11,855 nucleotides of DNA from a virus. Lineage: Duplodnaviria > Heunggongvirae > Uroviricota > Caudoviricetes. Shown piece by piece: positions 1-11,855 of the stretch; position 1 is the first letter of the stretch, and every line of letters starts with the position of its first letter. Where the stretch lies: IMG/VR virus record IMGVR_UViG_2541047119_000012, positions 1-11,855 of that record, one strand, 5' to 3'. The translations under genes were made by a program, and so were the position numbers. Under the pieces are notes generated by a model. That model did not search any database and had not been told where the DNA came from. It saw only the letters and a program-made list of their open reading frames with translations.

Positions 1-1
1 C

Positions 2-319
2 CATCACAGTGATAAAGGTTCTCAGTATGTATCACTGGCCTATACGGAGCGACTAAAAGAAGCCGGATTACTGGCATCAACAGGGAGTACAGGCGACTCG
101 TATGACAACGCGATGGCTGAGAGCATCAATGGTCTTTACAAAGCGGAGGTAATACACCGTAAGAGCTGGAAAAACCGTGCAGAAGTGGAACTGGCCACAC
201 TAACGTGGGTGGACTGGTATAACAATCGACGATTGCTGGGAAGGCTGGGCCATACTCCTCCGGCAGAAGCAGAAAAAGCTTATTATGCTTCCATCGGAAA
301 CGATGATCTGGCAGCCTGA
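2..319 (+). mobile_element. IS3-family-like transposase (rve/DDE integrase fold), C-terminal part; 5' end lies outside the window
   Basis: Frame open from position 2 to the stop at 317-319. Translation ...HSDKGSQYVSLAYTERLKEAGLLASTGSTGDSYDNAMAESINGLYKAEVIH...LTWVDWYNNRRLLGRLGHTPPAEAEKAYY shows the DDE-transposase C-terminal signature. The right end of the IS is not resolvable by eye; a GC hairpin at about 349-371 may lie in the terminal region. Confidence 0.75.
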
Positions 320-720
320 GTTCACAGATAAAACACTCTCCAGGAAACCCGGGGCGGTTCAGCCGCCCGGATGGATTGGGTTATGAGCCCGTCGTCCGGT
401 GATGCTCTTCTCTGTTTTGTAAAAAGGACGGTACCAGCCGGAAGCAAGGGTACAAGCTGGTACCGCTAAGACTACACACAGCATAAAGTTGTGGTGCCGG
501 GTGCCTCCCGGTGCCTGGCGAAGGTTGCACACCAGGCGGGTGGGTATCCACAGAAGGTCGACTGTCAGCCTCAACCTTAACCCGCGTGCGCTGAGCCGCA
601 TTCACCACAACGCTAAGGATTCTCTCTGGTTGAAAATACTTAGCTGTTATGTGCCTGTCTTTTCACCACTTCAGGCTCGGTGGTATCCTTTTAAGCCCGT
701 ATACATAAAAGGAAAATCAA

Positions 721-966
721 ATGACTTTTGATGAAAAAGAACTTGATAATGCAATTAATAAAATCATCGTAACGTCGCTCTTTTCCTGTCTCAGCGACAC
801 TCAGCAAAAACAGTTCTACGAATCGGCTTTCAACATGATCGAGCGTTGTTGTTTCTGCGATGCCGACGAGTTACCTGAAAAAATCAGGAAACAGTTGGCT
901 GATGCTCTTCGAGTGCGACTTTCTGACCAATTTTCTGAAATGTACTCTCCGAATTTGGACAAATAG
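721..966 (+). CDS. hypothetical small protein (81 aa)
   Basis: ATG preceded by AAAAGGAAAA Shine-Dalgarno-like sequence at about 8 nt. No recognisable motif. Overlaps the 3' end of the convergent ORF 884..1180. Confidence 0.35.
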   Translation: MTFDEKELDNAINKIIVTSLFSCLSDTQQKQFYESAFNMIERCCFCDADELPEKIRKQLADALRVRLSDQFSEMYSPNLDK

Positions 967-1180
967 AAAAAGGCCATTTCCATTCAGGGTCTGATGGAAA
1001 GACTTCAGCCTGTTCTAAAGCACGGCGTAAAGAGAACACAACTCCAGCCATAATCTGATGTTTCCCATTGGTCCAGCTATCGCCGCTCTGATCTACAGGG
1101 GCGGCTATGTCGTATGACCAAACGACTTCACAGTTATTGTTTAAAATCTGGACTTTCATTTCATACACCTGCTTTAACAT
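884..1180 (-). CDS. hypothetical small protein (98 aa, or 91 aa from the second Met)
   Basis: Leftward ORF downstream of the OL-like operators, the position of the first leftward gene (N) in lambda. An AGGTG sits about 7 nt before the second in-frame ATG. Not arginine-rich and no motif recognised. Confidence 0.3.
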   Translation of the reverse strand: MLKQVYEMKVQILNNNCEVVWSYDIAAPVDQSGDSWTNGKHQIMAGVVFSLRRALEQAEVFPSDPEWKWPFSICPNSESTFQKIGQKVALEEHQPTVS

Positions 1181-1366
1181 GAGTGCCTAGTGGCACAACA
1201 TGACTCAACGAATCATCCTGGACTTCATATGCCCCAGGCGGCTACTTCGTGGGCGTCCTGCCTGTTCGTTTTTGACATTTACTGACTGCTTACGACACAT
1301 GCACCGTGTTGCAACCAGATTTTGTTGTAATCCTGTAGTTGGTCTGGAATAAAAGATAAAATTAAA

Positions 1367-1403
1367 TTGCGAGATATGCAAGTGGTATTTGCGAGATATG
1401 CAA
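1367..1403. promoter_or_regulatory. OL-like operator pair: two identical 15-bp sites TTGCGAGATATGCAA (1367-1381, 1389-1403)
   Basis: Exact direct repeat with TTGC-N7-GCAA symmetry, the same pattern as the site TTGCGTGATAAGCAA in the cI-cro intergenic region. On the minus strand a TTGCAT -35-like hexamer overlaps the sites. Confidence 0.45.
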
Positions 1404-1415
1404 ATTTATAGGTAA

Positions 1416-1437
1416 TAAAAAGCCACCTTTCGGTGGC
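1416..1437 (-). terminator. intrinsic terminator downstream of the repressor gene (minus strand)
   Basis: GCCACC-TTTC-GGTGGC hairpin (1422-1437). On the minus strand it is followed by a T-run (plus-strand AAAAA at 1417-1421), about 20 nt past the cI stop. Confidence 0.6.
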
Positions 1438-1457
1438 CGATGGATGGGATATTGAGG

Positions 1458-2150
1458 TTAATTATGTCTCTTAAGGGTTTGCGACTGACTGATTAAGACC
1501 TTTCCAAAGACCATGAATCGGTGTTCGTTTTCGCTAGTAATTCCCCATTCACGGTAAATCTGGTTATCAGAAATCACCAGCAGTTTGTCAGGAATCATTT
1601 GAAGTCTTTTAACGTATATTTTGTCATCAAAACCAAAGACATATATACCATCACCATCAAACTGATTGATGCTGACATCAACGAAGATGAGATCTCCTGG
1701 CTCAATGGTTGGACACATACTGTCCCCACGAACGTTGATAACTTTGATGTGATTGGCTGGTCGTCCGCCGAACATTGATACAGCATTATCAGTTCTGTAT
1801 TCGATGGCATGAATCACATCAATGACATCACCGCCCTGGATAAGGCCATTTCCCGCACTGGCACTGATATCCAGCATTTCAATACGGAACACATCCTTCA
1901 CCTGCGCAACATCCTCATTATTACTGTTTTTATATACAGTATTACTTTTGTGGGCAGAGGTAAAGAGATCAGCAATATCAACACCTAAGCTCTTGGCAAT
2001 ATTACTCAGTGTTTGTTCGGTAAATTGTTTTTGCTTACCCGTTTCTAAGCGCGAGATGTTCGCCGCATCTACTCCTATCGCTTCAGCGAGATCGGCGATT
2101 TTCATGTTCTTCGCTTGGCGAAGTTGTCTGACTCGGTTTCCTATGTTCAT
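1458..2150 (-). CDS. cI: CI-type prophage repressor: N-terminal XRE-family HTH, C-terminal S24 (LexA-like) self-cleaving peptidase domain
   Basis: N-terminus MNIGNRVRQLRQAKNMKIADLAEAIGVDAANISRLETG is an HTH_XRE. C-terminus has GDSMCPTIEPGDLIFVD (catalytic Ser) and a downstream VKRL Lys, the S24 Ser-Lys dyad; Ala-Gly in ...SASAGNG... is a candidate cleavage site. Divergent from the cro-like gene. No SD before the ATG, so the mRNA is probably leaderless. Confidence 0.9.
   Translation of the reverse strand: MNIGNRVRQLRQAKNMKIADLAEAIGVDAANISRLETGKQKQFTEQTLSNIAKSLGVDIADLFTSAHKSNTVYKNSNNEDVAQVKDVFRIEMLDISASAGNGLIQGGDVIDVIHAIEYRTDNAVSMFGGRPANHIKVINVRGDSMCPTIEPGDLIFVDVSINQFDGDGIYVFGFDDKIYVKRLQMIPDKLLVISDNQIYREWGITSENEHRFMVFGKVLISQSQTLKRHN
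1922..1941. promoter_or_regulatory. LexA (SOS) box-like palindrome TACTGTTTTTATATACAGTA inside the cI coding sequence
   Basis: CTGT-N8-ACAG with an all-A/T spacer and TA flanks, close to the E. coli LexA box consensus TACTGTATATATATACAGTA. My by-eye scan of CTGT occurrences found no other copy in the window. Confidence 0.45.
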
Positions 2151-2247
2151 GCGTTTATTACATTTCTTTATTGCGTGATAAGCAAATCAACTTGCGCAAA
2201 ATAATTGCGTGAAATAACATGCATAACGCGCAATATTTGGAGGGCGT
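2151..2247. promoter_or_regulatory. OR-like divergent promoter/operator region between cI and cro
   Basis: Operator-like sites TTGCGTGATAAGCAA (2171-2185), palindrome TTGCGCAA (2192-2199), TTGCGTGAAATAACA (2206-2220) and inverted ATTGCGCG (2227-2234). Rightward promoter candidate: -35 TTGCGC (2192-2197), 17-bp spacer, -10 TAACAT (2215-2220), then GGAGGG RBS before the cro ATG. Confidence 0.6.
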
Positions 2248-2508
2248 ATGCAATCACCATTACGAAATGTGCGTAAGGCGCATGGTTTCACTTTGCAGCA
2301 TGTTGCTGCGGGTGTTCAAGTCAATCCAGCGACGTTGAGTCGTATTGAGAGGCTGGAGCAGATTCCATCTATCGAGCTTGCAGAACGTTTAGCCAATTTT
2401 TTTAAGGGTGAAGTCAGCGAAATGCAGATTCTTTATCCGGCACGTTTTCAATCTAGCCAAAACCAGAATGGGTTTAAACCACAGGAACAGGAGGTGAACC
2501 GTGGGTAA
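2248..2508 (+). CDS. cro: Cro-like HTH transcriptional regulator (XRE family)
   Basis: Divergent from cI. GFTLQHVAAGVQVNPATLSRIER is an HTH. GGAGGG RBS. Its stop overlaps the GTG start of the next gene. Confidence 0.7.
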   Translation: MQSPLRNVRKAHGFTLQHVAAGVQVNPATLSRIERLEQIPSIELAERLANFFKGEVSEMQILYPARFQSSQNQNGFKPQEQEVNRG

Positions 2509-3052
2509 GCATCACTGGAAAGTAGAAAAACAGCCTGAGTGGTACGTGAAAGCTGTCAGAAAAACTATCGCAGCGTTGCCGGGGGGGTACGCTGAAGCTG
2601 CTGACTGGCTGGATGTAACAGAGAACGCATTATTTAACCGCCTTCGTGCCGATGGCGATCAGATTTTCCCGCTGGGATGGGCAATGATTTTGCAACGTGC
2701 TGGTGGAACTCACTTCATTGCTGACGCTGTGGCGCAGTCTGCAAATGGCGTCTTTGTGTCTCTTCCTGATGTCGAGGATGTGGACAACGCCGATATCAAC
2801 CAACGCCTGCTGGAGGTCATTGAACAGATCGGCAGTTATTCAAAACAGATTCGTTCAGCAATTGAAGACGGTGTAGTGGAACCGCATGAGAAGACAGCAA
2901 TTAACGACGAGCTGTACCTCTCAATTTCGAAGCTGCAGGAGCATGCAGCACTGGTCTACAAAATTTTTTGCATTTCAGAAAGTAATGACGCCCGCGAGTG
3001 TGCAGCTCCGGGCGCCGTGGCGTGTCGTGACTGTGGAGAAACTAACGCATGA
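2501..3052 (+). CDS. YdaT/CII-like prophage regulatory protein (183 aa)
   Basis: GTG start after GGAGG RBS, translationally coupled to cro. Sits in the cII position of the immunity module. Family assignment is from memory of YdaT/CP76-type proteins, not from a search. Confidence 0.5.
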
Positions 3053-3387
3053 ACAGTTTAACAACACACTACCGTCGCTCGCAACTGATTGCACTTCCTG
3101 TACCGGGTGGAAAAGCGAAGGTGGAGTATTGCTATGCAGTGAATGTACCAGGTGACAGGGAAATTGTAACCCACAGCTTTGCAGAGTGGGCTGTGGGTGA
3201 TTTCAACAGGCAAAAGGAGACAGTCCTTTGCGACAAGTTAACCGCTGGTTCAAAGATCACTACGGAGTGCCCGTCAGAGTCATTCGTTGGGAACCGGAAA
3301 CACAACGGGTTATCTACCTCCGCGAAGGCTATGAGCATGAGTGCTTCAGCCCGCTCGAACAGTTTCGTCGTAAATTCAGGGAAATAG
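3049..3387 (+). CDS. hypothetical protein; the ORF as drawn is probably chimeric (5' part plausible, 3' part doubtful)
   Basis: ATG overlaps the upstream stop (ATGA) with GGAG about 7 nt upstream, so the start is credible. The 3' half is Ser-rich and low-complexity with rarer codons, while another frame looks coding (see 3228..3407). Confidence 0.3.
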
Positions 3388-3407
3388 AGGTCGGTCATGA
3401 GCACTAA
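3228..3407 (+). CDS. candidate small protein (59 aa) with TTG start, not in the ORF track
   Basis: AAAGGAGA at 3212-3219, 8 nt before TTG at 3228. Translation [59 protein letters not shown] is protein-like. Stop overlaps the start of the replication gene. May instead be the 3' part of a frameshifted gene begun at 3049. Confidence 0.3.
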
Positions 3408-4338
3408 ATTAACCGGCTATGTATGGGATGGTTGCGCTGCGTCAGGCATGAAGTTATCCAGCGTGGCAATTATGGCCCGCCTGGCTGATTTCAGTAATGA
3501 CGAAGGTGTGTGCTGGCCATCAATTGAAACCATTGCCCGCCAGATTGGCGCGGGGATGAGCACCGTCAGAACGGCTATCGCACGGCTGGAAGCAGAAGGC
3601 TGGTTAACGCGTAAGGCGCGTCGCCAGGGTAACCGCAATGCGTCGAATGTTTATCAGCTTAACGTTGCGAAGCTTCAGGCAGCGGCATTTTCTCAACTGT
3701 CAGATTCTGACCCGTCAAAATCTGACGCATCAAAATCTGACCCGTCAAAATTTGATGCGTCGAAATCTGGCAAAAAAGCGGGTTTTCACCCGTCAGAATC
3801 TGGCGGGGATCCGTCAGTAAAATCAAAACATGATCCGTCAGATAAAAAACCTTCTCGTCCGGACGCTTCGCAACCGGACACGCAGACGGATGAACAGGAT
3901 TTTTTAACTCGCCATCCTGATGCGGTTGTATTCAGCCCTAAAAAGCGCCAGTGGGGGACGCAGGATGATTTGACCTGTGCACAGTGGCTCTGGAAAAAAA
4001 TCATCGCCCTGTACGAGCATGCCGCCGAATGTGACGGCGAGGTGGTTCGTCCCAAAGAACCGAACTGGACAGCCTGGGCAAACGAAATTCGCCTGATGTG
4101 TGTGCAGGATGGTCGTACTCATAAACAAATCTGCGAGATGTACAGCCGCGTCAGTCGCGATCCGTTCTGGTGCCGTAACGTGCTCAGCCCGTCGAAGCTG
4201 CGGGAAAAATGGGATGAGCTTTCCCTGCGCTTATCGCCGTCCGTCAGCACGTACACCGAAAAACGCGAGGACCCGTACTTCAAAGCCAGTTACGACAACG
4301 TGGACTACAGCCAGATCCCGGCAGGATTCAGGGGGTGA
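3397..4338 (+). CDS. lambda O-like replication initiator (N-terminal winged-HTH) with an internal iteron array
   Basis: N-terminus ...VAIMARLADFSNDEGVCWPSIETIARQIGAGMSTVRTAIARLEAEGWL is a wHTH. The repeat region encodes SDPSKSDASKSDPSKFDASKS. Position follows the immunity module as O does in lambda. Confidence 0.55.
   Translation: MSTKLTGYVWDGCAASGMKLSSVAIMARLADFSNDEGVCWPSIETIARQIGAGMSTVRTAIARLEAEGWLTRKARRQGNRNASNVYQLNVAKLQAAAFSQLSDSDPSKSDASKSDPSKFDASKSGKKAGFHPSESGGDPSVKSKHDPSDKKPSRPDASQPDTQTDEQDFLTRHPDAVVFSPKKRQWGTQDDLTCAQWLWKKIIALYEHAAECDGEVVRPKEPNWTAWANEIRLMCVQDGRTHKQICEMYSRVSRDPFWCRNVLSPSKLREKWDELSLRLSPSVSTYTEKREDPYFKASYDNVDYSQIPAGFRG
3706..3845. repeat. iteron array (putative replication origin): four tandem 15-bp units (3706-3765) plus degenerate copies to about 3845, followed by an A-rich stretch
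   Basis: TCTGACCCGTCAAAA / TCTGACGCATCAAAA / TCTGACCCGTCAAAA / TTTGATGCGTCGAAA at exact 15-bp phase; 3724-3734 and 3751-3761 are reverse complements. Further CCGTCAGA-like copies at 3789, 3810, 3834, then AAAATCAAAACA...GATAAAAAACC. Confidence 0.6.
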
Positions 4339-4340
4339 GC

Positions 4341-4829
4341 ATGAGTCTTTTGAATGACGTTCAGAAATTCATTGAAGCCCATCCGGGCTGTACTTCCGGA
4401 GACATTGCGGATGCTTTTGCAGGTTACTCACGGCAGCGCGTTCTGCAGTCTGCAAGCAAGTTACGTCAGAGTGGGCGTGTGGCTCACCGTTGTGAAGGGG
4501 ATACACGCAGACATTTCCCGCGCCTGACTGAGAGAGCGCAGGAGCCGGAACCACAACCAGTTCGTGAAACCAGACCTGTGCGCAATTTCTATGTCGGCAC
4601 TAACGATCCCCGGGTGATTTTGTGCCTGACCCGCCAGGCTGAAGAACTGGAGTCCAGGGGCTTATACCGTCGTGCTGCAACGGTGTGGATGGCGGCATTC
4701 CGTGAAAGCCACTCCCAGCCAGAACGAAACAATTTTCTGGCGCGTCGTGAGCGGTGCTTACGGAAAAGCAGCAAGCGCGCTGTATCGGGTGAAGAGTGGT
4801 ATCTGTCAGGGAATTACGTGGGGGCTTAA
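4341..4829 (+). CDS. PerC-family-like transcriptional regulator (about 162 aa)
   Basis: ATG at 4341 after GGGGG RBS (an in-frame GTG at 4335 is also possible). Motif ...ELESRGLYRRAATVWMAAF... resembles the PerC/Pch signature as I recall it. Stop overlaps the next start (TAATG). Confidence 0.45.
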   Translation: MSLLNDVQKFIEAHPGCTSGDIADAFAGYSRQRVLQSASKLRQSGRVAHRCEGDTRRHFPRLTERAQEPEPQPVRETRPVRNFYVGTNDPRVILCLTRQAEELESRGLYRRAATVWMAAFRESHSQPERNNFLARRERCLRKSSKRAVSGEEWYLSGNYVGA

Positions 4830-5482
4830 TGAGTAATAAATATTGCCAGGCGCTGGTGGAGCTGCGGAACAAACCAGCCCATGAACTGAAGGAAGTGGGC
4901 GATCAGTGGCGCACGCCGGACAACATTTTCTGGGGAATTAACACCCTGTTTGGCCCGTTTGTTCTGGATCTGTTCACTGACGGTGATAACGCCAAATGTG
5001 CCGCTTATTACACTGCGGAAGACAACGCGCTGGCGCATGACTGGTCAGAACGTCTTGCGGAGCTTAAAGGTGCTGCCTTTGGTAATCCCCCATACAGCCG
5101 CGCCAGTCAGCATGAGGGGCAATACATCACCGGCATGCGTTACATCATGAAGCATGCCAGTGCCATGCGTGATAAAGGCGGGCGCTATGTTTTCCTGATC
5201 AAAGCTGCCACCAGCGAAGTGTGGTGGCCGGAAGATGCAGATCATATTGCTTTTATTCGCGGGCGTATTGGTTTTGAACTGCCTGCCTGGTTTATCCCGA
5301 AGGATGAGAAGCAGGTGCCGACAGGCGCTTTCTTCGCTGGTGCTATTGCTGTTTTCGACAAGACCTGGAAGGGACCGGCAATCAGCTACATCGGGCGCTA
5401 TGAACTTGAGGCATGTGGTGAGGCCTTTCTGGCGCAGGTTCGCCAGCAGGCAGAAAAACTGGTCAGGGAGATGGCGGCATGA
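4829..5482 (+). CDS. phage Dam-type DNA N6-adenine methyltransferase
   Basis: N-terminal WRTPDNIF motif and catalytic NPPY (...AAFGNPPYSRA...). ATG overlaps the upstream stop; the GTG at 4796 in the ORF track is less likely. Confidence 0.85.
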   Translation: MSNKYCQALVELRNKPAHELKEVGDQWRTPDNIFWGINTLFGPFVLDLFTDGDNAKCAAYYTAEDNALAHDWSERLAELKGAAFGNPPYSRASQHEGQYITGMRYIMKHASAMRDKGGRYVFLIKAATSEVWWPEDADHIAFIRGRIGFELPAWFIPKDEKQVPTGAFFAGAIAVFDKTWKGPAISYIGRYELEACGEAFLAQVRQQAEKLVREMAA

Positions 5483-5805
5483 CGACGTTAACTCAATGCC
5501 AGCAGCAGGTGCTGGATATGCTGATTTCTTATCAGAAAGAACGTGGCTTCCCGCCAACCAATCAGGAGGTGGCAACCATGCTGGGATACCGTTCAGTGAA
5601 TGCAGCGGTGGAGCATCTTCGCGCACTGGAGAAAAAAGGCGTCATCACGATAAAGCGTGGCGTGGCCCGGGGGATAACGCTTCATATCGCGGTGAAGGAC
5701 GACGACAGCGAGGCGGTCGGGATTATCCGCGCACTGCTTGCCGGTGAGGAAAACGCAAGGCTGCGTGCAACCCACTGGTTACATGAGAGGGACCTGAAAG
5801 TATGA
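5479..5805 (+). CDS. LexA N-terminal DNA-binding-domain protein with no S24 peptidase domain (108 aa)
   Basis: LTQCQQQVLDMLISYQKERGFPPTNQEVATMLGYRSVNAAVEHLRALEKKGVITIKRGVARGITL aligns by eye along its length with the E. coli LexA N-terminus (…LTARQQEVFDLI…[44 protein letters not shown]…). No Ala-Gly cleavage or Ser-Lys peptidase region follows. GGGAG RBS; ATGA overlap with the methyltransferase stop. Confidence 0.8.
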   Translation: MTTLTQCQQQVLDMLISYQKERGFPPTNQEVATMLGYRSVNAAVEHLRALEKKGVITIKRGVARGITLHIAVKDDDSEAVGIIRALLAGEENARLRATHWLHERDLKV

Positions 5806-6191
5806 AGCTGATCCTGCCTTTTCCGCCCAGCGTGAACACGTACTGGCGACACCCCAACAAAGGGGCGTTTGCTGGTAAGAGCCTGATAAGCGCGGCGGGG
5901 CGAAAATTCCAGAGCGCGGCGTGCGCAGCAATAGTTGAGCAGTTACGTCGTCTGCCGAAACCAACGTCGGCACCTGCTTCAGTGGAGATCGTGTTGTTTC
6001 CTCCGGATAACCGGATCCGCGATCTGGACAACTATAACAAGGCGCTGTTTGACGCCCTGACCCACGCGGGTGTGTGGGAAGACGACAGTCAGGTGAAAAG
6101 AATGCTGGTGGAGTGGGGACCGGTTATCCCGGAAGGGAAGGTCGAGATCACTATCAGTAAGTACGAGAAAACGGCGGGTGCAGCCGCCTGA
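5802..6191 (+). CDS. rusA: RusA Holliday-junction resolvase
   Basis: PFPPSVNTYWRH...DLDNYNKALFDALTHAGVWEDDSQV matches the RusA family conserved blocks. Start overlaps the upstream stop. Confidence 0.9.
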   Translation: MKLILPFPPSVNTYWRHPNKGAFAGKSLISAAGRKFQSAACAAIVEQLRRLPKPTSAPASVEIVLFPPDNRIRDLDNYNKALFDALTHAGVWEDDSQVKRMLVEWGPVIPEGKVEITISKYEKTAGAAA

Positions 6192-6210
6192 TTAAGAGGA
6201 GAAACGAAGT

Positions 6211-7020
6211 ATGAATAATCTGATGGTCATTGATGGTATTGAAGTTCGTCGTGATGCTTATGGGCGTTACAGCCTGAACGATCTGCATCGCGCAGCAGTA
6301 GCATCTGGTGCAAATGCCAGAACCAAGGAGCCGGGAAAGTTTCTTTCCAGCCAACAAACTGTTGAGCTTGTTCATGAATTGACCAACACCCAGAATTTGG
6401 GTGTTGACCCGGTGAGTGTGATTCATGGGGGAAATGAACGGGGAACGTATGTCTGCAAGGAACTGGTGTATGCCTATGCAATGTGGATCAGCCCGTCATT
6501 CCATCTGAAGGTGATCCGTACTTTCGATATGGTAACCAGCGCACCGGAAAAATTATCCGGACAGGCTGCTGACAAGATGCAGGCTGGCGTGATCCTGCTG
6601 GACTTTATGCGCCGGGAGTTAAACCTGTCTAACTCTTCAGTGCTTGGTGCCTGTCAGAAACTCCAGGAGGCTGTTGGCTTACCGAATCTGGCACCGCGCT
6701 ATGCCATTGATGCTCCTGCTGACGCGCCTGATGGCTCAAGCCGCCCCACGCTATCATTGAGTGCACTGCTGAAGCAGTATGGTATCCGCCTGACAGCTAA
6801 TCAGGCATATCACCAGATGGCGAAGCTGGGGATCGTTGAACAACGTGAACGATACAGCCGCACTGCGATTAACAACATCAAAAAATTCTGGTCGCTGACA
6901 GCGAAAGGCTGCATGTTCGGCAAGAACATCACCAGTCCCGCAAATCCGCGCGAGACGCAGCCGCATTTCTTCGAATCCCGATTCCCTGAGCTGTTAAAGC
7001 TGCTCGATACCGTTCATTGA
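6211..7020 (+). CDS. KilA-N domain protein with a C-terminal antirepressor-like region
   Basis: N-terminus ...DGIEVRRDAYGRYSLNDLHRAAVASG...GTYVCKELVYAYAMWISPSFHLKVI is a KilA-N domain. Strong RBS AAGAGGAGAAA. Confidence 0.75.
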   Translation: MNNLMVIDGIEVRRDAYGRYSLNDLHRAAVASGANARTKEPGKFLSSQQTVELVHELTNTQNLGVDPVSVIHGGNERGTYVCKELVYAYAMWISPSFHLKVIRTFDMVTSAPEKLSGQAADKMQAGVILLDFMRRELNLSNSSVLGACQKLQEAVGLPNLAPRYAIDAPADAPDGSSRPTLSLSALLKQYGIRLTANQAYHQMAKLGIVEQRERYSRTAINNIKKFWSLTAKGCMFGKNITSPANPRETQPHFFESRFPELLKLLDTVH

Positions 7021-7021
7021 G

Positions 7022-8017
7022 GTGACCGTGAGAGCACTACTGACTCCTGAAATTGCCCCGCGTATGGGGATCGTATTGTTCAGGCCAGGTTCAGAGCTGA
7101 TGCCCCTGTTTATGCAGGGGCGTGTCCTGCTGGAGCCTGAGCCGGAACGTTATTCATCTTTCGCCAGTGGTGCCGTTCCGGCGGCATCACAACCGCTGGC
7201 GGATGATCCTGCCGTTCGGGCCGTGTTCCGCAATGAGGCAGTGATCCGTCGTGCTGGTGGCGTGGAATGTCTTGAAAGCTGGTTACTTCGTGAAAAAGGC
7301 TGCCAGTGGCCTCATTCCGACTGGCACAGCGAGAACATGACCACAATGCGACACGCTCCGGGCGCAATCCGTCTGTGCTGGCACTGCGATAACCAGCTGC
7401 GCGATCAGTTCACGGAACGGCTGGAATCAATGGCAACGGATAACTGTGCCCGCTGGGTGTTGTCTGTTGTGCGTCGGGATCTCGGTTTTGATGACAGTCA
7501 CGTTGTGACAATGCCGGAACTGTGCTGGTGGCTGATTCGTAATGACCTGGCGGATGCCTTACCGGAAAGTGCAGCCCGTAAGGCACTTAGATTACCGAAG
7601 CCTGTTGTGCCGTCTGTTACCCGGGAAAGTGACCTTGTGCCTTCGGTTCCTGCCACCAGCATCATCCAGGATAAAGCGAAAAAGGTGCTGGCGCTGAAAG
7701 TGGATCCTGAGTCGCCGGAGTCTTTTATGTTACGCCCAAAACGTCGCCGCTGGGTTAATGAAAAGTACACGCGCTGGGTTAAGACACAGCCGTGTGCATG
7801 TTGTGGAAAGCCTGCTGATGATCCCCACCACCTGATAGGTCACGGTCAGGGAGGAATGGGTACAAAAGCGCATGACCTCTTTGTGTTGCCTTTGTGCAGA
7901 AAGCATCACGACGAGCTGCATGCGGATACCGTGGCATTTGAAGAGAAGTATGGCTCCCAGCTGGAGCTGATATTTCGTTTTATCGATCGTGCGCTGGCAA
8001 TAGGCGTACTGGCGTAA
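7022..8017 (+). CDS. DUF968-like prophage protein with a C-terminal Cys/His zinc-binding (HNH-like) motif
   Basis: C-terminus ...PCACCGKPADDPHHLIGHGQGGMGTKAHDLFVLPLCRKHHDELH. Nin-region position between rusA and Q. Start is uncertain (GTG 7022 or a downstream start). Confidence 0.5.
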   Translation: MTVRALLTPEIAPRMGIVLFRPGSELMPLFMQGRVLLEPEPERYSSFASGAVPAASQPLADDPAVRAVFRNEAVIRRAGGVECLESWLLREKGCQWPHSDWHSENMTTMRHAPGAIRLCWHCDNQLRDQFTERLESMATDNCARWVLSVVRRDLGFDDSHVVTMPELCWWLIRNDLADALPESAARKALRLPKPVVPSVTRESDLVPSVPATSIIQDKAKKVLALKVDPESPESFMLRPKRRRWVNEKYTRWVKTQPCACCGKPADDPHHLIGHGQGGMGTKAHDLFVLPLCRKHHDELHADTVAFEEKYGSQLELIFRFIDRALAIGVLA

Positions 8018-8030
8018 GTGGAGAACGAGC

Positions 8031-8783
8031 ATGAACTTTGAAGCCTTACCGAAATATTACTCCCCAAAATCTCCAAAATTGAGCGATGACGCACCGGCGA
8101 CAGGCTCTGGTGGTTTAACAATTACGGATGTAATGGCTGCGCAGGGGATGGTGCAGTCGAAAGCACCGCTTGGGTTTGCCTTATTCCTGGCAAAAGTTGG
8201 TGTTCAGGATCCTCAGTTTGCGATTGAAGGTCTGCTCAATTACGCGATGGCACTGGATAACCCGACATTGAACAAATTGAGTGAAGAAACCCGGCTACAG
8301 ATCATTCCTTACCTTGTGAATTTTGCCTTTGCTGATTATTCCAGGTCTGCGGCAAGTAAGGCTCGCTGTGAGCATTGTGCTGGTACTGGATTTCATGATG
8401 TATTGCGCGAGGTGGTGAAACACTCCAGAAGCGGGGAATCTGTTATCAAGGAAGAGTGGGTGAAGGAACTGTGTCAGCATTGTCATGGTAAGGGAGAAGT
8501 CAGCACAGCGTGCAGAGGGTGTAAGGGTAAAGGTATTGTCCTGGATGAAAAAAGAACCAGGCTTCATGGCACGCCTGTTTATAAGGTTTGTGGGCGTTGC
8601 AATGGAAACCGGTTTAGCCGTTTACCAACCACACTGGCGCGGCTTCATGTCCAGAAGCTGGTACCAGACCTGACGGATTATCAGTGGTACAAAGGATATG
8701 CAGATGTCATTGATAAACTGGTTACAAAGTGCTGGCAGGAAGAAGCGTATGCTGAGACACAATTGAGGAAAGTGACGAGATGA
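8031..8783 (+). CDS. Q: late-gene antitermination protein Q (phage 82 / QuuQ type, 250 aa)
   Basis: Four CxxCxGxG-type zinc-finger repeats (CEHCAGTG, CQHCHGKG, CRGCKGKG, CGRCNGN). Sits immediately upstream of a promoter plus short-transcript terminator. GGAG RBS. Confidence 0.8.
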   Translation: MNFEALPKYYSPKSPKLSDDAPATGSGGLTITDVMAAQGMVQSKAPLGFALFLAKVGVQDPQFAIEGLLNYAMALDNPTLNKLSEETRLQIIPYLVNFAFADYSRSAASKARCEHCAGTGFHDVLREVVKHSRSGESVIKEEWVKELCQHCHGKGEVSTACRGCKGKGIVLDEKRTRLHGTPVYKVCGRCNGNRFSRLPTTLARLHVQKLVPDLTDYQWYKGYADVIDKLVTKCWQEEAYAETQLRKVTR

Positions 8784-8814
8784 ATGATTTTCGACGAAAA
8801 TGGCGACATGATGC

Positions 8815-8843
8815 TTGCATTTTTCAAAAAAAATGGATAATAT
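8815..8843 (+). promoter_or_regulatory. PR'-like late promoter (-35 TTGCAT, 17-bp spacer, -10 TAATAT); a qut site is expected to overlap
   Basis: Hexamers at 8815-8820 and 8838-8843, directly downstream of Q and about 50 nt upstream of an intrinsic terminator. Confidence 0.5.
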
Positions 8844-8890
8844 TTTCTCAATGATAGGCATTGTGTGTCCGGCTTTAATAAAAAGTAGAA

Positions 8891-8917
8891 AACCCGCTGA
8901 TGTGCGGGTTTTTTTTC
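8891..8917 (+). terminator. tR'-like intrinsic terminator
   Basis: AACCCGC-TGATGT-GCGGGTT hairpin followed by TTTTTTTT. Confidence 0.7.
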
Positions 8918-8937
8918 GGAATTTTAGATGTGTGGCA

Positions 8938-8967
8938 TTGAAATGGTATTCGGCGAGTAGGTAGAAT
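8938..8967 (+). promoter_or_regulatory. sigma70-like promoter upstream of the cargo genes (-35 TTGAAA, 18-bp spacer, -10 TAGAAT)
   Basis: Hexamers at 8938-8943 and 8962-8967, about 27 nt upstream of the 8995 ATG. Confidence 0.4.
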
Positions 8968-8994
8968 TTAAACTTTCGTCTCGTCTGGATCGAC

Positions 8995-9537
8995 ATGATG
9001 TTTCAAGCCTTCCAAACAGCAGTATTTAAAAATGTTGCAGAGTATTTAAAAGGGCGCTTCCCTCATAAGTCGTTAGGGCTCGTATATGCCGACGAGCTGG
9101 TACTAAAAGATATGGAGTTCCTCAAGGCTAACAATAAACTGCGGTGGGATCCCGGACTAAAGTCGCGAGTGTTTATGGATATGATGGAAGAACACCCGAT
9201 AAAACTAGTTGTTTATTATCGTGGGGAGCCTATTGGATTTGCATTTGGGTGTTACTGTAAGCCGAAAAATGCGGTGCATATTTGCTGGATGGAAAAACGT
9301 AATGATGCACATGAAGACCTAGACCATCAGATGCTTGGTATCGTTTTGGATTGCTTCTCTGCATATGCACGATTTCTGAACCTTCAGGGTGAATCTATTG
9401 ATTCGATAGCTTTAGTTAGTCCAGTTGATGGGGCAATAAGATACTATACTGAAAGTGGTTTTGAGTACATTGCTGATTACGAACGAGGTGGTTGCGCAAT
9501 GGTGCTTAGGAGCGTTTTACCTAACCAATCAGTGTGA
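8995..9537 (+). CDS. uncharacterised cargo protein (180 aa), possibly GNAT-fold acyltransferase-like
   Basis: Lies in the AT-rich segment. C-terminal ...SIALVSPVDGAIRYYTESGFEYIADYERGGCAMVL resembles the GNAT beta5-alpha4-beta6 region, but the canonical Q/RxxGxG/A acetyl-CoA motif is not evident. Weak SD. Confidence 0.55.
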   Translation: MMFQAFQTAVFKNVAEYLKGRFPHKSLGLVYADELVLKDMEFLKANNKLRWDPGLKSRVFMDMMEEHPIKLVVYYRGEPIGFAFGCYCKPKNAVHICWMEKRNDAHEDLDHQMLGIVLDCFSAYARFLNLQGESIDSIALVSPVDGAIRYYTESGFEYIADYERGGCAMVLRSVLPNQSV

Positions 9538-9728
9538 GTTAGATTCTTAATTTCTCCAGAATCATTACAAAAGTATTGAAAACCTCTTTTAGTTGATGCA
9601 ATCTGGATCCACACAAAGCACACACAAAATGTACTACGCTTTACTTTATACATCTTCAGGTAACAAACTTTGTTGCCTTTATGCTTCAAAGAAGCAACTA
9701 CAGCTTAGTGCTGAACAAGGGGATTTTT

Positions 9729-9914
9729 ATGAAACATCATGAGCAGATAGAGATTGAGGCAGCTAAAGTCGTCGCCGAACTCTTTGCTGGCAATGCATCT
9801 CCAATGGAAACCTTTGGTATTACATGGAGTCAAACTCAGATGTTAGAGCGTAAGAATCCTGGTGTAGTGATCAAACTAGTACCGGATGACGGTAAAAAAC
9901 TTGCGTATTGCTGA
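9729..9914 (+). CDS. uncharacterised small cargo protein (61 aa)
   Basis: ATG at 9729 with AAGGGG 6 nt upstream (the track's upstream ATG at 9681 lacks an RBS). Followed by an intrinsic terminator. No motif recognised. Confidence 0.5.
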   Translation: MKHHEQIEIEAAKVVAELFAGNASPMETFGITWSQTQMLERKNPGVVIKLVPDDGKKLAYC

Positions 9915-9973
9915 TAATTTTTAAAGATTTTTTCAGCTAGAGAATCGATTATTTTACTATAAATCGCGAAGGA

Positions 9974-9998
9974 GCCCCACATATTGTGGGGCTTTTTG
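9974..9998 (+). terminator. intrinsic terminator closing the cargo unit
   Basis: GCCCCACA-TAT-TGTGGGGC hairpin (8-bp stem) followed by TTTTTG. Confidence 0.7.
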
Positions 9999-10171
9999 TT
10001 TCATCTTAGTTAGCCGTTATTCACATTCACTACTTTGCTACTTATCCACTGTAAAAATAAATTGTGAATTATTTTGTGGCTTATTGTTAGTGTTCTATCA
10101 ATTTTGTGTGTGATATTCCATTGGCGTGGTTATTATCTGTGCATCGCACTTAAATGTATAAAGCTCACTAG

Positions 10172-10486
10172 TTGAGACAATCCTACCACCAGTTGGTGGT
10201 ATCTCATGATTCACTGAATTGCAAATCTTCTGAATTGCTGGATGAGTTTAAATCTCACCGGCGCTATTTCTCCGTATCAGTCTCCGTGCCTTATACCGAT
10301 GTCAGGACGCATAAGCCCGTTCAGTTCTACCCGGGTAAACATCCGTGCGAGAAACCGGCGGATATGCTCAGGCAAATAATCAATGCCAGTAGTCGACCTG
10401 GTGATCTGGTTGCTGATTTCTTTATGGGATTCGGTTCCACAATAAAAGCAGCAATGGCGCTGGGGCGTCGGGCGTTAGGTGTTTAA
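10172..10486 (+). pseudogene. remnant of a beta-class N6/N4 DNA methyltransferase (C-terminal motif region only)
   Basis: ...HPCEKPADMLRQIINASSRPGDLVADFFMGFGSTIKAAMALGRRALGV corresponds to the conserved ...HPTQKP...GD.VLDPF.GSGTT..AA..LGR..IGIE block with degenerate residues. No DPPY-encoding N-terminal part upstream, which is AT-rich non-coding. TTG start only. Confidence 0.55.
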
Positions 10487-10553
10487 CTTGAGTCAGAGCG
10501 GTTTAATCAGACGGTGAAAGAGGTAAGTGAACTGGTGGGGAAATAATTCTGGT

Positions 10554-10579
10554 GGCCACGTTGCGTGGCCTTTTTATTT
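10554..10579 (+). terminator. intrinsic terminator immediately upstream of the holin gene
   Basis: GGCCACG-TTG-CGTGGCC hairpin (10554-10570) followed by TTTTTATTT. Confidence 0.6.
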
Positions 10580-10622
10580 CCAACACAGCACCCGCAAATA
10601 TCGCGAGGTGAGAGATGACGAA

Positions 10623-10958
10623 ATGCCTCATAACCCAAATACCTGGCCGGACTGGCTGGAGTTGTTTCAGAGCTGGTGGCGTGGAGACACACCGCTGGGT
10701 GCAGTGATTATGTCGATCGTTATGGCTGGTTTGCGCATCGCCTATTTTGGCGGTGGTGGTGGCTGGAAGCGAAAAACGCTCGAGATTTTGCTATGTGGCG
10801 CTCTGACGCTGACCTTTGCATCCGCTCTTGAGTATGTCGGATGGCCTAAATCACTTTCTGTTGCCATTGGTGGTGGGGTGGGGCTGATCGGTGTCGATGC
10901 TATTCGTGGGGCTGCAATGCGAGTAATCGGTAACAAATTTGGTGGCTCTAAGGAGTAA
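10623..10958 (+). CDS. holin (lambda-S-like architecture, about 111 aa)
   Basis: Three hydrophobic segments (AVIMSIVMAGLRIAYFGG; TLEILLCGALTLTFASALEYV; LSVAIGGGVGLIGVDAIRGAAM) and a charged C-terminus, directly upstream of the endolysin. GAGGTGA about 11 nt before ATG 10623. The track's 10527 GTG start would place a terminator hairpin inside the coding sequence. Confidence 0.7.
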   Translation: MPHNPNTWPDWLELFQSWWRGDTPLGAVIMSIVMAGLRIAYFGGGGGWKRKTLEILLCGALTLTFASALEYVGWPKSLSVAIGGGVGLIGVDAIRGAAMRVIGNKFGGSKE

Positions 10959-10961
10959 TTT

Positions 10962-11438
10962 ATGCAGGTACTAAATTCCCAGCGTAAAGCTTTCCTTGAT
11001 ATGGTGGCTTGGTCAGAAGGAACGGATAACGGACGACAACCGACACGTAACCACGGTTATGACGTTATTGTCGGTGGTGAACTCTTCACTGATTACTCCG
11101 ATCACCCTCGCAAACTTGTCACGCTAAACCCCAAACTCAAATCAACAGCCGCCGGACGTTACCAGCTTCTTTCACGTTGGTGGGATGCTTACCGTAAACA
11201 GCTTGGTTTGAAAGACTTCTCCCCCAAAAGCCAGGACGCTGTGGCATTGCAGCAGATTAAAGAACGTGGCGCTTTACCGATGATTGATCGTGGTGATATT
11301 CGTCAGGCTATCGACCGTTGCAGCAATATCTGGGCTTCGTTGCCGGGCGCTGGTTACGGTCAGTTCGAGCATAAGGCTGACAGCCTGATTGCAAAATTCA
11401 AAGAAGCAGGCGGAACGGTCAGAGAGATTGAGGTATGA
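10962..11438 (+). CDS. R: endolysin, lambda R-type lytic transglycosylase
   Basis: ...[57 protein letters not shown]...[91 protein letters not shown]... is almost identical to phage lambda R as I recall it. AAGGAG RBS. Confidence 0.95.
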
Positions 11439-11855
11439 GCAGAGTAACCGCGATTATTTCCGCTCTGGTTATCTGCATCATCGTCTGCCTGTCATGGGCT
11501 GTTAATCATTACCGTGATAACGCCATTACCTACAAAGCCCAGCGCGACAAAAATGCCAGAGAACTGAAGCTGGCGAACTCGACAATTACTGACATGCAGA
11601 TGCGTCAGCGTGATGTTGCTGCGCTCGATGCAAAATACACGAAGGAGTTAGCTGATGCGAAAGCTGAAAATGATGCTCTGCGTGATGATGTTGCCGCTGG
11701 TCGTCGTCGGTTGCACATCAAAGCAGTCTGTCAGTCAGTGCGTGAAGCCACCACCGCCTCCGGCGTGGATAATGCAGCCTCCCCCCGACTGGCAGACACC
11801 GCTGAACGGGATTATTTCACCCTCAGAGAGAGGCTGATCACTATGCAAAAACAAC
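11435..11855 (+). CDS. Rz: Rz i-spanin (inner-membrane spanin); 3' end beyond the window
   Basis: [48 protein letters not shown]... matches lambda Rz. ATG overlaps the R stop. Confidence 0.9.
11655..11837 (+). CDS. Rz1: Rz1 o-spanin lipoprotein, embedded in the +1 frame of Rz
   Basis: [24 protein letters not shown]... has a lipobox (VVGC) and the proline-rich [17 protein letters not shown], lying wholly inside Rz in another frame as in lambda. Confidence 0.9.

Follow-up and report, generated by a model that had tools for sequence, protein, structure and literature searches.

Positions 362 to ~644 of the window, an 11,855-nucleotide stretch of prophage DNA (positions 1 to 11,855 of the IMG/VR virus record IMGVR_UViG_2541047119_000012), hold a structured RNA locus that is read from the minus strand and lies entirely within the early-left (pL) operon. 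The locus comprises a 124-nucleotide pseudoknotted domain of the STnc100 superfamily (611-488) and, directly behind it, a module (~487-421) in which a 16-nucleotide stretch identical to part of the small RNA (sRNA) RprA is joined to an intrinsic terminator. We assign a probability of roughly 0.6 to the following reading: upon derepression, transcripts from pL would end at ~421, and the resulting RNA of ~200-230 nucleotides, perhaps cut to ~65 nucleotides, would act in trans with Hfq via its RprA-type seed, the domain being an autonomous module. RNAs of this kind are already known as STnc100, EcOnc27 and PasD. Undescribed in Rfam and in the literature searched are the early-operon subfamily represented here, its pseudoknot, its identity with the dicF-dicB spacer and with the leader of the P1 ban operon, and the attached RprA-type seed.

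A pseudoknotted RNA domain on the minus strand

The GC content of this part of the window reaches 0.58 (in 301-600). The minus strand of 415-645 folds with an energy of -93.7 kcal/mol (z = -4.1), and none of 200 shuffled sequences folded as well; the corresponding values for the plus strand are -83.9 kcal/mol and z = -2.3. A preliminary description of the interval 340-620, made from the sequence alone, had listed three stem-loops and a triple GGTGCC repeat, and had suggested a structured RNA among other possibilities. All four features are present within 1-3 nucleotides of the positions given there, and the structured RNA is borne out by the minus-strand fold, by a match to STnc100 and by covariation among 108 homologues. 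The hairpins are not independent plus-strand stem-loops, however, as had been supposed. The first one aside, they are parts of a single minus-strand RNA (hairpin P5; hairpin P6 with the 3' strand of helix P1; the terminator), which does not end at position 620 but continues to ~644.

In the minimum free energy (MFE) fold of 616-484, the domain is closed by the 9-bp helix P1 (GUUGUGGUG/CACCACAAC, 611-603 with 496-488). The junction J1/2 (AAU, 602-600) leads into hairpin P2 (599-584), which is followed by the 5' strand of the pseudoknot (AAGGUUG, 578-572) and by two variable hairpins (~571-538), P2 and the variable hairpins also being taken from the MFE fold. Hairpin P5 (GCCUGGUG/CGCCAGGC, 537-513) contains the inverted repeat GCCTGG/CCAGGC (513-518/532-537, 13 nucleotides apart), and its loop holds the 3' strand of the pseudoknot (CAACCUU, 527-521). 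Hairpin P6 (CCGGG-AGGCA-CCCGG, loop AGGCA, 511-497) directly abuts the 3' strand of P1. On the other side, P1 is abutted by hairpin P0 (GCUAAGUAUUUUC/GAGAAUCCUUAGC, 612-644), a 13-nucleotide inverted repeat of 85% complementarity that is also present in the fold; the hairpin at this position in Salmonella phage ST64B shows a compensatory C-G to A-U change. The hexamer GGTGCC is not enriched in the window as a whole (nine found versus 6.3 expected), and the clustered triplet (at 493, 500 and 510) is the reverse complement of a near-invariant core, GGCACC-GGGA-GGCACC-CGGCACC.

The domain was delimited by an Rfam match, a covariance model of our own (R1), the MFE fold and pair counts. At Rfam gathering thresholds nothing was reported for the whole window. 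A permissive scan of 250-800 (551 nucleotides, E up to 10), the kind of covariance search that the preliminary description had proposed, returned one significant match, to STnc100 (RF02076; minus strand, 641-419; 43.0 bits, E 4.8e-8). The family was thus recognized at a score below the curated gathering score of 47 bits, and the default Rfam scan is therefore silent. The alignment spans model positions 1-206, follows the consensus architecture and includes an exact match to a 22-nucleotide core. Model R1, which was built from 25 early-operon sequences with P1, P2, P5 and P6 specified, scores 93.8 bits on the window over 616-484, in a single copy. It also matches the canonical STnc100 copies end to end, at 37-68 bits, where Rfam gives 64-87 bits. 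This recovery of canonical STnc100 by a model derived from early-operon copies only argues that the window element is, as judged from its sequence, a true but divergent STnc100 relative that the Rfam cut-off excludes. A scan for tRNA and tmRNA found neither, in agreement with the earlier impression.

Base pairs were counted in 108 aligned model matches, in an alignment that was fitted to R1 and that consequently favours structure. In total, 91.4% of the cells form standard pairs, and changes on both sides occur at 27 of the 31 pairs. The covariation score is 0.471, versus 0.144 for shuffles and 0.03-0.07 for slid partners. P2 switches wholesale between two subfamilies (G-C to C-G at three pairs), P6 changes from G-C to U-A in 17 sequences, and many of the G-U pairs are compatible with the minus strand only. 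Covariation supports all of the helices as well as the pseudoknot. In sequences that otherwise have little in common, no position of the 22-nucleotide core (CACCGGGAGGCACCCGGCACCA) varies.

The pseudoknot arises when the 6-8 bases just after P2 pair with complementary bases in the P5 loop, and the sequences of the two strands vary by lineage. The pairs are AAGGUUG/CAACCUU in the window and ST64B, AAGGCUG/CAGCCUU in Cronobacter phage phiES15, UGGUUAU/AUAACCA in P1 and CAGUUAA/UUAACUG in the dicB and kilR types; further pairs include CCAGUC/GACUGG, UAUCAGC/GCUGAUA, UCCAGCA/UGCUGGA and others. The pairing was tested in windows anchored on P1 and then, for 56 distinct sequence types, in the model alignment. 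The longest Watson-Crick run averages 5.36 with the sequence's own partner versus 3.44 in cross-pairs, runs of at least 6 bp occur in 50% versus 5.6%, and none of 2000 permutations reached the observed mean. In the usual geometry a nine-nucleotide loop consists of two nucleotides followed by seven paired ones, which lead straight into the 3' arm of P5; by established principles of RNA structure, this would meet the need of an H-type pseudoknot. In the window the 5' strand of the pseudoknot can alternatively pair with a local partner (UCGACCUU), which competes for it, so that two mutually exclusive folds are available. In ST64B the local alternative is weakened and the pseudoknot is intact.

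The homologues also bear on the question of a protein gene. Three open reading frames (ORFs) overlap the interval (359-601 minus, 381-608 minus and 489-731 plus), the two on the minus strand being 75-80 codons long. Moreover, the RefSeq annotation produced by the Prokaryotic Genome Annotation Pipeline (PGAP) places a minus-strand pseudogene, "hypothetical protein, frameshifted", over the domain and terminator in three relatives (L001 6003-6331; L002 5954-6264; L003 5937-6256), as would be expected if the interval were a decayed protein-coding gene. We consider such a gene very improbable. No credible family was found by Pfam and PHROG searches of all ORFs overlapping 362-731, the sole matches being short and partial (BRF2-like, 14.7 bits versus a cut-off of 27; phrog_36251 over 23 residues of the plus-strand ORF). 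In a six-frame comparison across the homologues, none of the frames stays open across the domain in every one of them; the open frame differs from one to another, and phiES15 has stops in all six. The substitutions are compensatory within helices rather than codon-patterned, and the core is invariant where the remaining sequence is dissimilar. The annotated pseudogene is probably artefactual, the product of spurious ORF calls on GC-rich structured RNA, and the preliminary view that the interval contains no credible ORF is upheld by the lack of both a family and a conserved frame.

Relatives of the element are widespread. The region 362-720 is found at 97-99% identity in the IS-free loci (free of the insertion sequence, IS, discussed below) of ~1,670 of 5,426 complete E. 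coli genomes, and in phages. In BLAST comparisons identity was 92-99.6% in SfV, SfII, SfIV and several E. coli phages, 88% in ST64B and 118970_sal3, 77% in phiES15 and ~70% in P1 and the P1-like SJ46 and RCS47. In every lambdoid case, the element is located between the immunity region and the recombination/kil genes on the transcribed strand, and in the P1-like phages it is part of the ban operon, which C1 controls, and shortly precedes tciA (TerB-like) or a small membrane-protein gene. It is thus always on the transcribed strand of a repressor-controlled operon (SfV, SfII, SfIV, ST64B, 118970_sal3 and phiES15; P1, SJ46 and RCS47). In P1-like phages (L129 3680-3823; L230 6676-6813) the domain model gives a second and much weaker match, of 25-31 bits, which precedes the main ban-operon copy by several hundred bases. 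Pattern scans of viral contigs detected the 22-nucleotide core in at least 120 stretches and the early-operon 5' motif in at least 120 stretches. In a species-level genome scan the 5' motif was confined to Escherichia, Shigella, Citrobacter and Enterobacter, barring two metagenome-assembled genomes (MAGs). The latter matches are on contigs binned to Veillonella (L244) and Collinsella (L247) MAGs, where mis-binning or contamination is probably the explanation, being likelier than true presence.

A full-length member of the family (R1, 138.9 bits) occupies the spacer between dicF and dicB in the Qin prophage of E. coli K-12 MG1655 (1649449-1649585; L236 1150-1286). Its closing helix has 20 perfect pairs and starts 3 nucleotides after the U-tract of DicF. 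The 72-nucleotide form of DicF that is generated by RNase III ends 19 nucleotides past the 53-nucleotide form (PMC5069750), which places the RNase III cut mid-way in the 20-bp helix. The fit of this published site provides independent, experimental support that P1 forms in cells at the Qin locus.

Canonical STnc100 copies possess a promoter (TTGACN-17-TAnnnT) that ends 3-5 nucleotides before P1, and their terminator follows 45-60 nucleotides after. The PasD sRNAs of enteropathogenic E. coli (EPEC) are Hfq-dependent and are reported relatives of STnc100. EcOnc27/sRNA103 of Stx2 phages is one of the canonical copies and comprises a promoter, the domain, a linker and a terminator; the published northern probe for EcOnc27 is the exact reverse complement of the linker in one of the copies examined (L121). 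EcOnc27 was observed at ~235/247 nucleotides by northern blot and displayed an Hfq peak in cross-linking and analysis of cDNA (CRAC) (Tree et al. 2014). Some canonical copies form tandem arrays of three to five, with a period of ~255 nucleotides (L022 342-1038; L030 1702-2340; L061 4374-5462), and in L022 the array is followed by a tRNA gene.

The window element shares with STnc100 the UGGUG/CACCA closing helix, the AAU junction, the P2 hairpin, the covarying P5, the AGGCA loop of P6 and the 22-nucleotide core, together with a linker and intrinsic terminator after the domain and an origin in temperate enterobacterial phages. In contrast, its P2 reads GCGGCUCAGCGC instead of CCCCCUGUGCGGAGGGG, a compensatory change, and its linker carries the RprA-type seed in place of the EcOnc27 linker. 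Unlike the canonical copies it lacks a promoter of its own, and its place is the early-left operon, next to the immunity region, rather than the interval from Q/stx to the lysis genes. The window copy is consequently not a free-standing late-region gene; its locus lies between the cI side and yfdP/yfdR.

The candidate seed and the terminator downstream of the domain

On the minus strand, the 3' strand of P1 is followed by a short AU-rich linker, then by the candidate seed UGCUGUGUGUAGUCUU (16 nucleotides, 468-483) and then by the terminator. The seed is an exact 16-mer of E. coli RprA (sequence from PMC7311995), with 0 such matches expected by chance. Processed RprA consists of the last 47 nucleotides of the RNA (PMC9262595); in the 47 nucleotides computed from the full sequence, UGCUGUGUGUAGUCUU falls at the 5' end, so that the window seed is identical to the 5' region of the processed form. 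In the MFE fold the seed is mostly unpaired, 483-477 being free and 476-472 forming part of a weak 5-bp outer helix.

The intrinsic (Rho-independent) terminator (GGTACCAGC/GCTGGTACC, 421-466, minus strand) has a folding energy of -23.9 kcal/mol (z = -3.1). It is built on the inverted repeat CGGTACCAGC/GCTGGTACCG (429-438/456-465, 17 nucleotides apart, 100% complementary), which gives an 11-12-bp stem (465-456 with 438-429) and a 17-nucleotide loop, followed by CC and five U residues (425-421). The 429-465 hairpin was accepted as a terminator on the basis of its fold energy, its U-run and its homology to terminators at the same place in relatives.

The seed persists where its surroundings have changed. 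It is kept in copies with three unrelated terminators, including those of ST64B and phiES15, and in a DicF homologue (L153, 42.8 bits) that lies upstream of a kilR-type domain. In phiES15, 23 of 24 nucleotides are shared with RprA, including the start of the terminator, and in ST64B the match to RprA reaches into the 3' strand of P1. Conservation of the seed despite exchange of the terminator is the pattern that a base-pairing sRNA would show.

Taken together, the seed and terminator (~487-421) resemble the modules of DicF and of processed RprA. With RprA the window shares all 16 nucleotides of UGCUGUGUGUAGUCUU, in the same position directly upstream of the terminator hairpin. The terminators themselves differ, and the window copy is prophage-encoded and not under Rcs control. 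Only nucleotides 61-80 of RprA align with the window; the RprA model (RF00034) has no match in 250-800 at E up to 10, and the part that pairs with rpoS is absent. Two further short resemblances were noted, involving nucleotides 30-48 and 52-82 of RprA: RprA GCAUGGAAAUCCCCUGAG resembles the canonical STnc100 5' end GCAUGGUGAAUCCCCCUGAG, and RprA ACAACGAAUUGCUG... resembles the 3' strand of P1 plus linker in the ST64B copy. From such short matches one might speculate that RprA is a collapsed relative of the phage locus.

With DicF (RF00039) the likeness is one of layout. A single-stranded 5' seed is followed by a terminator and then by a long helix suited to RNase III, and the module adjoins a pseudoknotted domain in a repressor-controlled early operon. 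A short seed-plus-terminator RNA in a prophage early operon, accompanied by a helix of RNase III type, is a DicF trait that the window locus, by its sequence, appears to display. By score the window is not a member of the DicF family (13.5 bits over 480-426, versus a threshold of 48 bits). Moreover, its seed is UGCUGUGUGUAGUCUU in place of the ftsZ-targeting UUUCUGGUGACGUUUGG, its P1 has 9 bp as opposed to 20 bp in Qin, and the order is domain and then sRNA, whereas Qin has sRNA, domain and dicB.

IS end and prophage setting

The plus strand of 1-361 is the 3' part of an IS629/IS1203 element (IS3 family), with Pfam matches to the rve_3/rve_2 integrase core on 113-316 and with the C-terminus of transposase orfB ending at the TGA stop codon in 317-319. 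The right terminal inverted repeat ends in ...CCCGGGGCGGTTCA at 361. Positions 1-361 are identical to a copy annotated as "IS3-like element IS1203 family transposase" in strain NZRM3614 (L001), which has the left end TGAACCGCCCCGG, the right end CCGGGGCGGTTCA and a 3-bp target duplication, GTT. The characteristics of an IS629/IS1203 terminal repeat, namely TGAACCGCCCCGG... with CA at its end and direct continuity with the transposase gene, are found in 340-361 only. The IS sequence stops at 361 and therefore accounts for only the first 22 nucleotides of the interval 340-620; the earlier suggestion of an IS terminal region is correct for this IS629/IS1203 right end and incorrect for the remainder, and the interval as a whole is not ordinary IS sequence.

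Alignment with NZRM3614 and with the relatives L002 and L003 defined the IS/flank junction at 361/362. In the window the IS end directly abuts GCCGCCCGG, whereas 42 bases (GTTAGTTTCTCCACAAAACAGAGAAGAACACCTGCGGTGGCA) lie between them in NZRM3614, whose IS occupies the identical site (L001 5990-6050; L003 5960-6012). The same 42 bases are also present in the IS-free L003 and L002. The junction that the preliminary description had envisaged as a recombination event is accordingly a 42-bp deletion adjacent to the IS. In one piece, the junction 361/362 has no match among the 5,426 complete E. coli genomes. The insertion target of the IS (GGGGCGGTT) resembles the terminal repeat of the IS itself.

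The first of the hairpins (350-370; GGGCGG/CCGCCC at 352-357/363-368, 5 nucleotides apart, within 8-nucleotide arms containing one G.G mismatch) is half IS terminal repeat and half flank, and the fold of 340-380 is not better than that of shuffles (z = -1.6). Because the IS-adjacent deletion fused the IS end to the flank, this hairpin is an accidental product of the junction and no part of the RNA. The IS end, the deletion and this chance hairpin would all be accommodated if the interval were nothing other than IS terminal sequence or a recombination scar, its hairpins arising from GC richness and chance. That explanation is scarcely credible, as it is refuted for 362-644 by the IS-free homologues among the ~1,670 E. 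coli genomes and the phages, and as the fold z-scores and the covariation are well beyond chance.

The bases next to the junction (362-418, minus strand) are the remnant of a long-hairpin module, in which the 5' arm (418-396) survives along with part of the inner hairpins, the 3' arm being deleted. In the IS-free L003 (5945-6075, minus strand) the intact module forms a near-perfect helix of ~25 bp that encloses two small hairpins (-63.2 kcal/mol, z = -8.5). This helix follows the terminator at once in IS-free relatives, and the bases deleted in the window are its 3' arm. It has the appearance of an RNase III substrate, with a counterpart in the 20-bp helix that follows DicF in K-12.

Relatives of the window are located at the thrW tRNA gene beside proA in E. 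coli, mostly O157:H7. Their gene order is integrase, excisionase-like, yfdT, yfdR, (yfdQ, yfdP), the RNA interval, a cI-like XRE repressor, Cro-like, ymfL and replication genes. Shigella phage SfV and Salmonella phage ST64B have the same order of modules, and on this ground the window is classified as an SfV/CPS-53-like lambdoid prophage at thrW.

In the window the cI-like repressor gene (1458-2150) is on the minus strand, with a terminator downstream and then the candidate pL. The latter (TTGCAT-17-TATCTT, 1343-1401, minus strand) was read directly from the sequence and is accompanied by two TTGCATATCTCGCAA operator repeats. With the repressor gene on the minus strand and the candidate pL and operators to its left, the early-left operon is read leftwards through the RNA locus, and pL is the likely source of the transcript that carries it. 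The 98-codon ORF next to pL has no Pfam match, and its sole PHROG match is of unknown function.

The position of the domain downstream of pL and immediately upstream of a terminator invites comparison with the put RNAs of HK022 and HK639, which are likewise structured RNAs in an early-left operon, upstream of a terminator, in phages without a recognizable N. According to this explanation, the domain would be a processive antiterminator that modifies RNA polymerase and so lets it pass the adjoining terminator and the later ones of the early-left operon. The order ORF, RNA, terminator and genes recalls cro-nutR-tR1 of lambda, the 98-residue product of the ORF beside pL is not recognizable as N-like, and the annotation of ST64B likens its repressor to HK022 cI. 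We nevertheless regard a put-like role as quite improbable. The window element has no similarity to put RNAs in sequence or model: HK639 putL (L234 34187-34312) is unrelated by eye, and R1 has no match there or in 23-30 kb of HK022, while it finds an ordinary late-region STnc100 copy in HK639. The window contains a single copy, with no putR-like partner downstream of pR. Furthermore, relatives of the element are either stand-alone, terminated sRNA genes, as in the canonical copies, or placed after a terminator, as in Qin, where the domain follows that of DicF.

Several other features of the region were recorded. A conserved hairpin (ACCACCGAGCCUGAAGUGGU then GAAAAGACAGGCA, 665-684, minus strand) is located upstream of the RNA locus, is found also upstream of the homologues in L164 and L153 (5670-5700), and accompanies that locus in several prophages. 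It is labelled a minus-strand terminator in the SfV record, yet only the plus strand has a U-run. The ORFs 721-966 (plus) and 884-1180 (minus) overlap on opposite strands and match phrog_3311 and phrog_3195, respectively, over their full length, both of unknown function; the former is annotated by RefSeq in O157 strains and the latter in the SfV record. No tandem repeats were detected in 300-1500. In ST64B and 118970_sal3 (L005 6564-6752; L130 6022-6098), the sequence to the right of the immunity region matches isrK-like and C4 antisense RNAs at scores above the gathering score of Rfam, and no such match occurs in the window.

Mode of action and biological significance

The sRNA reading given at the outset can be laid out as a series of proposed steps. 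Release of the cI-like repressor would allow transcription from pL through the 98-codon ORF into the RNA locus. Transcription would largely stop at the terminator, leaving an RNA of ~200-230 nucleotides analogous to EcOnc27. Cleavage by RNase E in the linker may then free a seed-plus-terminator RNA of ~65 nucleotides, with the architecture and biogenesis of DicF and of processed RprA, and this RNA, together with Hfq, would target in trans the host mRNAs recognized by the RprA seed. The pseudoknotted domain would constitute a separate, autonomous module, which in other phages either comes with a promoter of its own or is cut out, apparently by RNase III.

As the main alternative, the domain may be a cis-acting leader, either riboswitch-like or an attenuator responsive to a protein or RNase, that gates transcription or translation of the early genes, which are yfdP onwards in the window and, among relatives, dicB, kilR, kil and the terB-like tciA. 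The terminator would then serve as the expression platform, a part played in relatives by the ribosome-binding region or the RNase III helix. The architecture is aptamer-like, combining near-invariant junction nucleotides, covarying helices and a pseudoknot with variable peripheral hairpins, and the two exclusive folds offered in the window by the pairing of the pseudoknot 5' strand with UCGACCUU would be in keeping with a switch. In ~70 distinct sequences, the domain lies 16-44 nucleotides (mostly 32-44) upstream of a start codon that is preceded by a Shine-Dalgarno (SD) sequence. The ORFs concerned belong to at least seven unrelated families (including DicB, KilR-like, Kil, TerB-like and Rha/Ash), several of them division inhibitors or toxic genes. 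In addition, the lambdoid copies have an intrinsic terminator 45-70 nucleotides downstream, and phages P1 and SJ46 have a hairpin (AACCUUAUU/AAUGAGGUU) that shares bases with the 3' strand of helix P1 and might sequester the SD. Set against this, the canonical members are free-standing, Hfq-bound sRNAs with their own promoter and terminator, and the Qin-type domain is apparently cut out by RNase III and not kept on the mRNA. No convincing antiterminator pairing was found between the domain and the window terminator, the SD is not consistently sequestered in the MFE folds, and no ligand or binding protein is known. We therefore rate a cis-acting role as doubtful, though it deserves to be kept in mind.

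Several results weigh against the sRNA reading. The invariance of the 22-nucleotide core and the stereotyped position of homologues, 32-44 nucleotides upstream of dicB, kilR, terB-like and other ORFs, suit a cis role at least as well. The Rfam score falls short of the gathering score, and the pair counts come from the model-fitted alignment, both as described above. The promoter scan revealed no minus-strand sigma-70 site just upstream of the RNA locus, and expression of the window copy therefore depends on the presumed pL. A simple terminator scan missed the 429-465 hairpin, whose loop exceeds the limit of the scan; a 17-nucleotide loop together with only five U residues is unusual. A search for complementarity to the seed, made inside the window only (host mRNAs were not examined), gave nothing above chance. 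Finally, no Hfq peak near the thrW prophage is listed in Table S2 of Tree et al. 2014, which concerns strain Sakai, whose carriage of the element is unconfirmed; its absence would be expected if the RNA is made only from a repressed pL.

On a wider and more tentative view, which we hold to be possible rather than probable, the domain is one RNA, widespread in temperate enterobacterial phages, of which STnc100/EcOnc27/PasD, the dicF-dicB spacer of K-12, the leader of the P1 ban operon and the pL element of SfV type are all forms. Such an RNA would serve by itself as a sensor or effector, namely a ligand- or protein-binding fold that gates prophage division inhibitors, or an RNase III-released RNA that binds a host factor. 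The sRNA seeds (of the DicF, RprA and EcOnc27 types) would be exchangeable cargo, and RprA a collapsed descendant.

If the present analysis is correct, default Rfam and PGAP annotation misses, or calls a broken gene, an RNA locus that is present in ~1,670 of 5,426 complete E. coli genomes as well as in SfV, ST64B and P1. The poorly understood STnc100/PasD/EcOnc27 sRNAs of pathogenic E. coli would join a larger family with a defined pseudoknotted fold, a family that would also take in the long-known, unexplained untranslated spacer between dicF and dicB in K-12 and its RNase III site and that would thereby become accessible in a harmless laboratory strain. Moreover, prophage induction would release an RNA bearing the RprA seed, thereby linking phage development to the RprA regulon, with its control of the general stress response and of biofilm formation.

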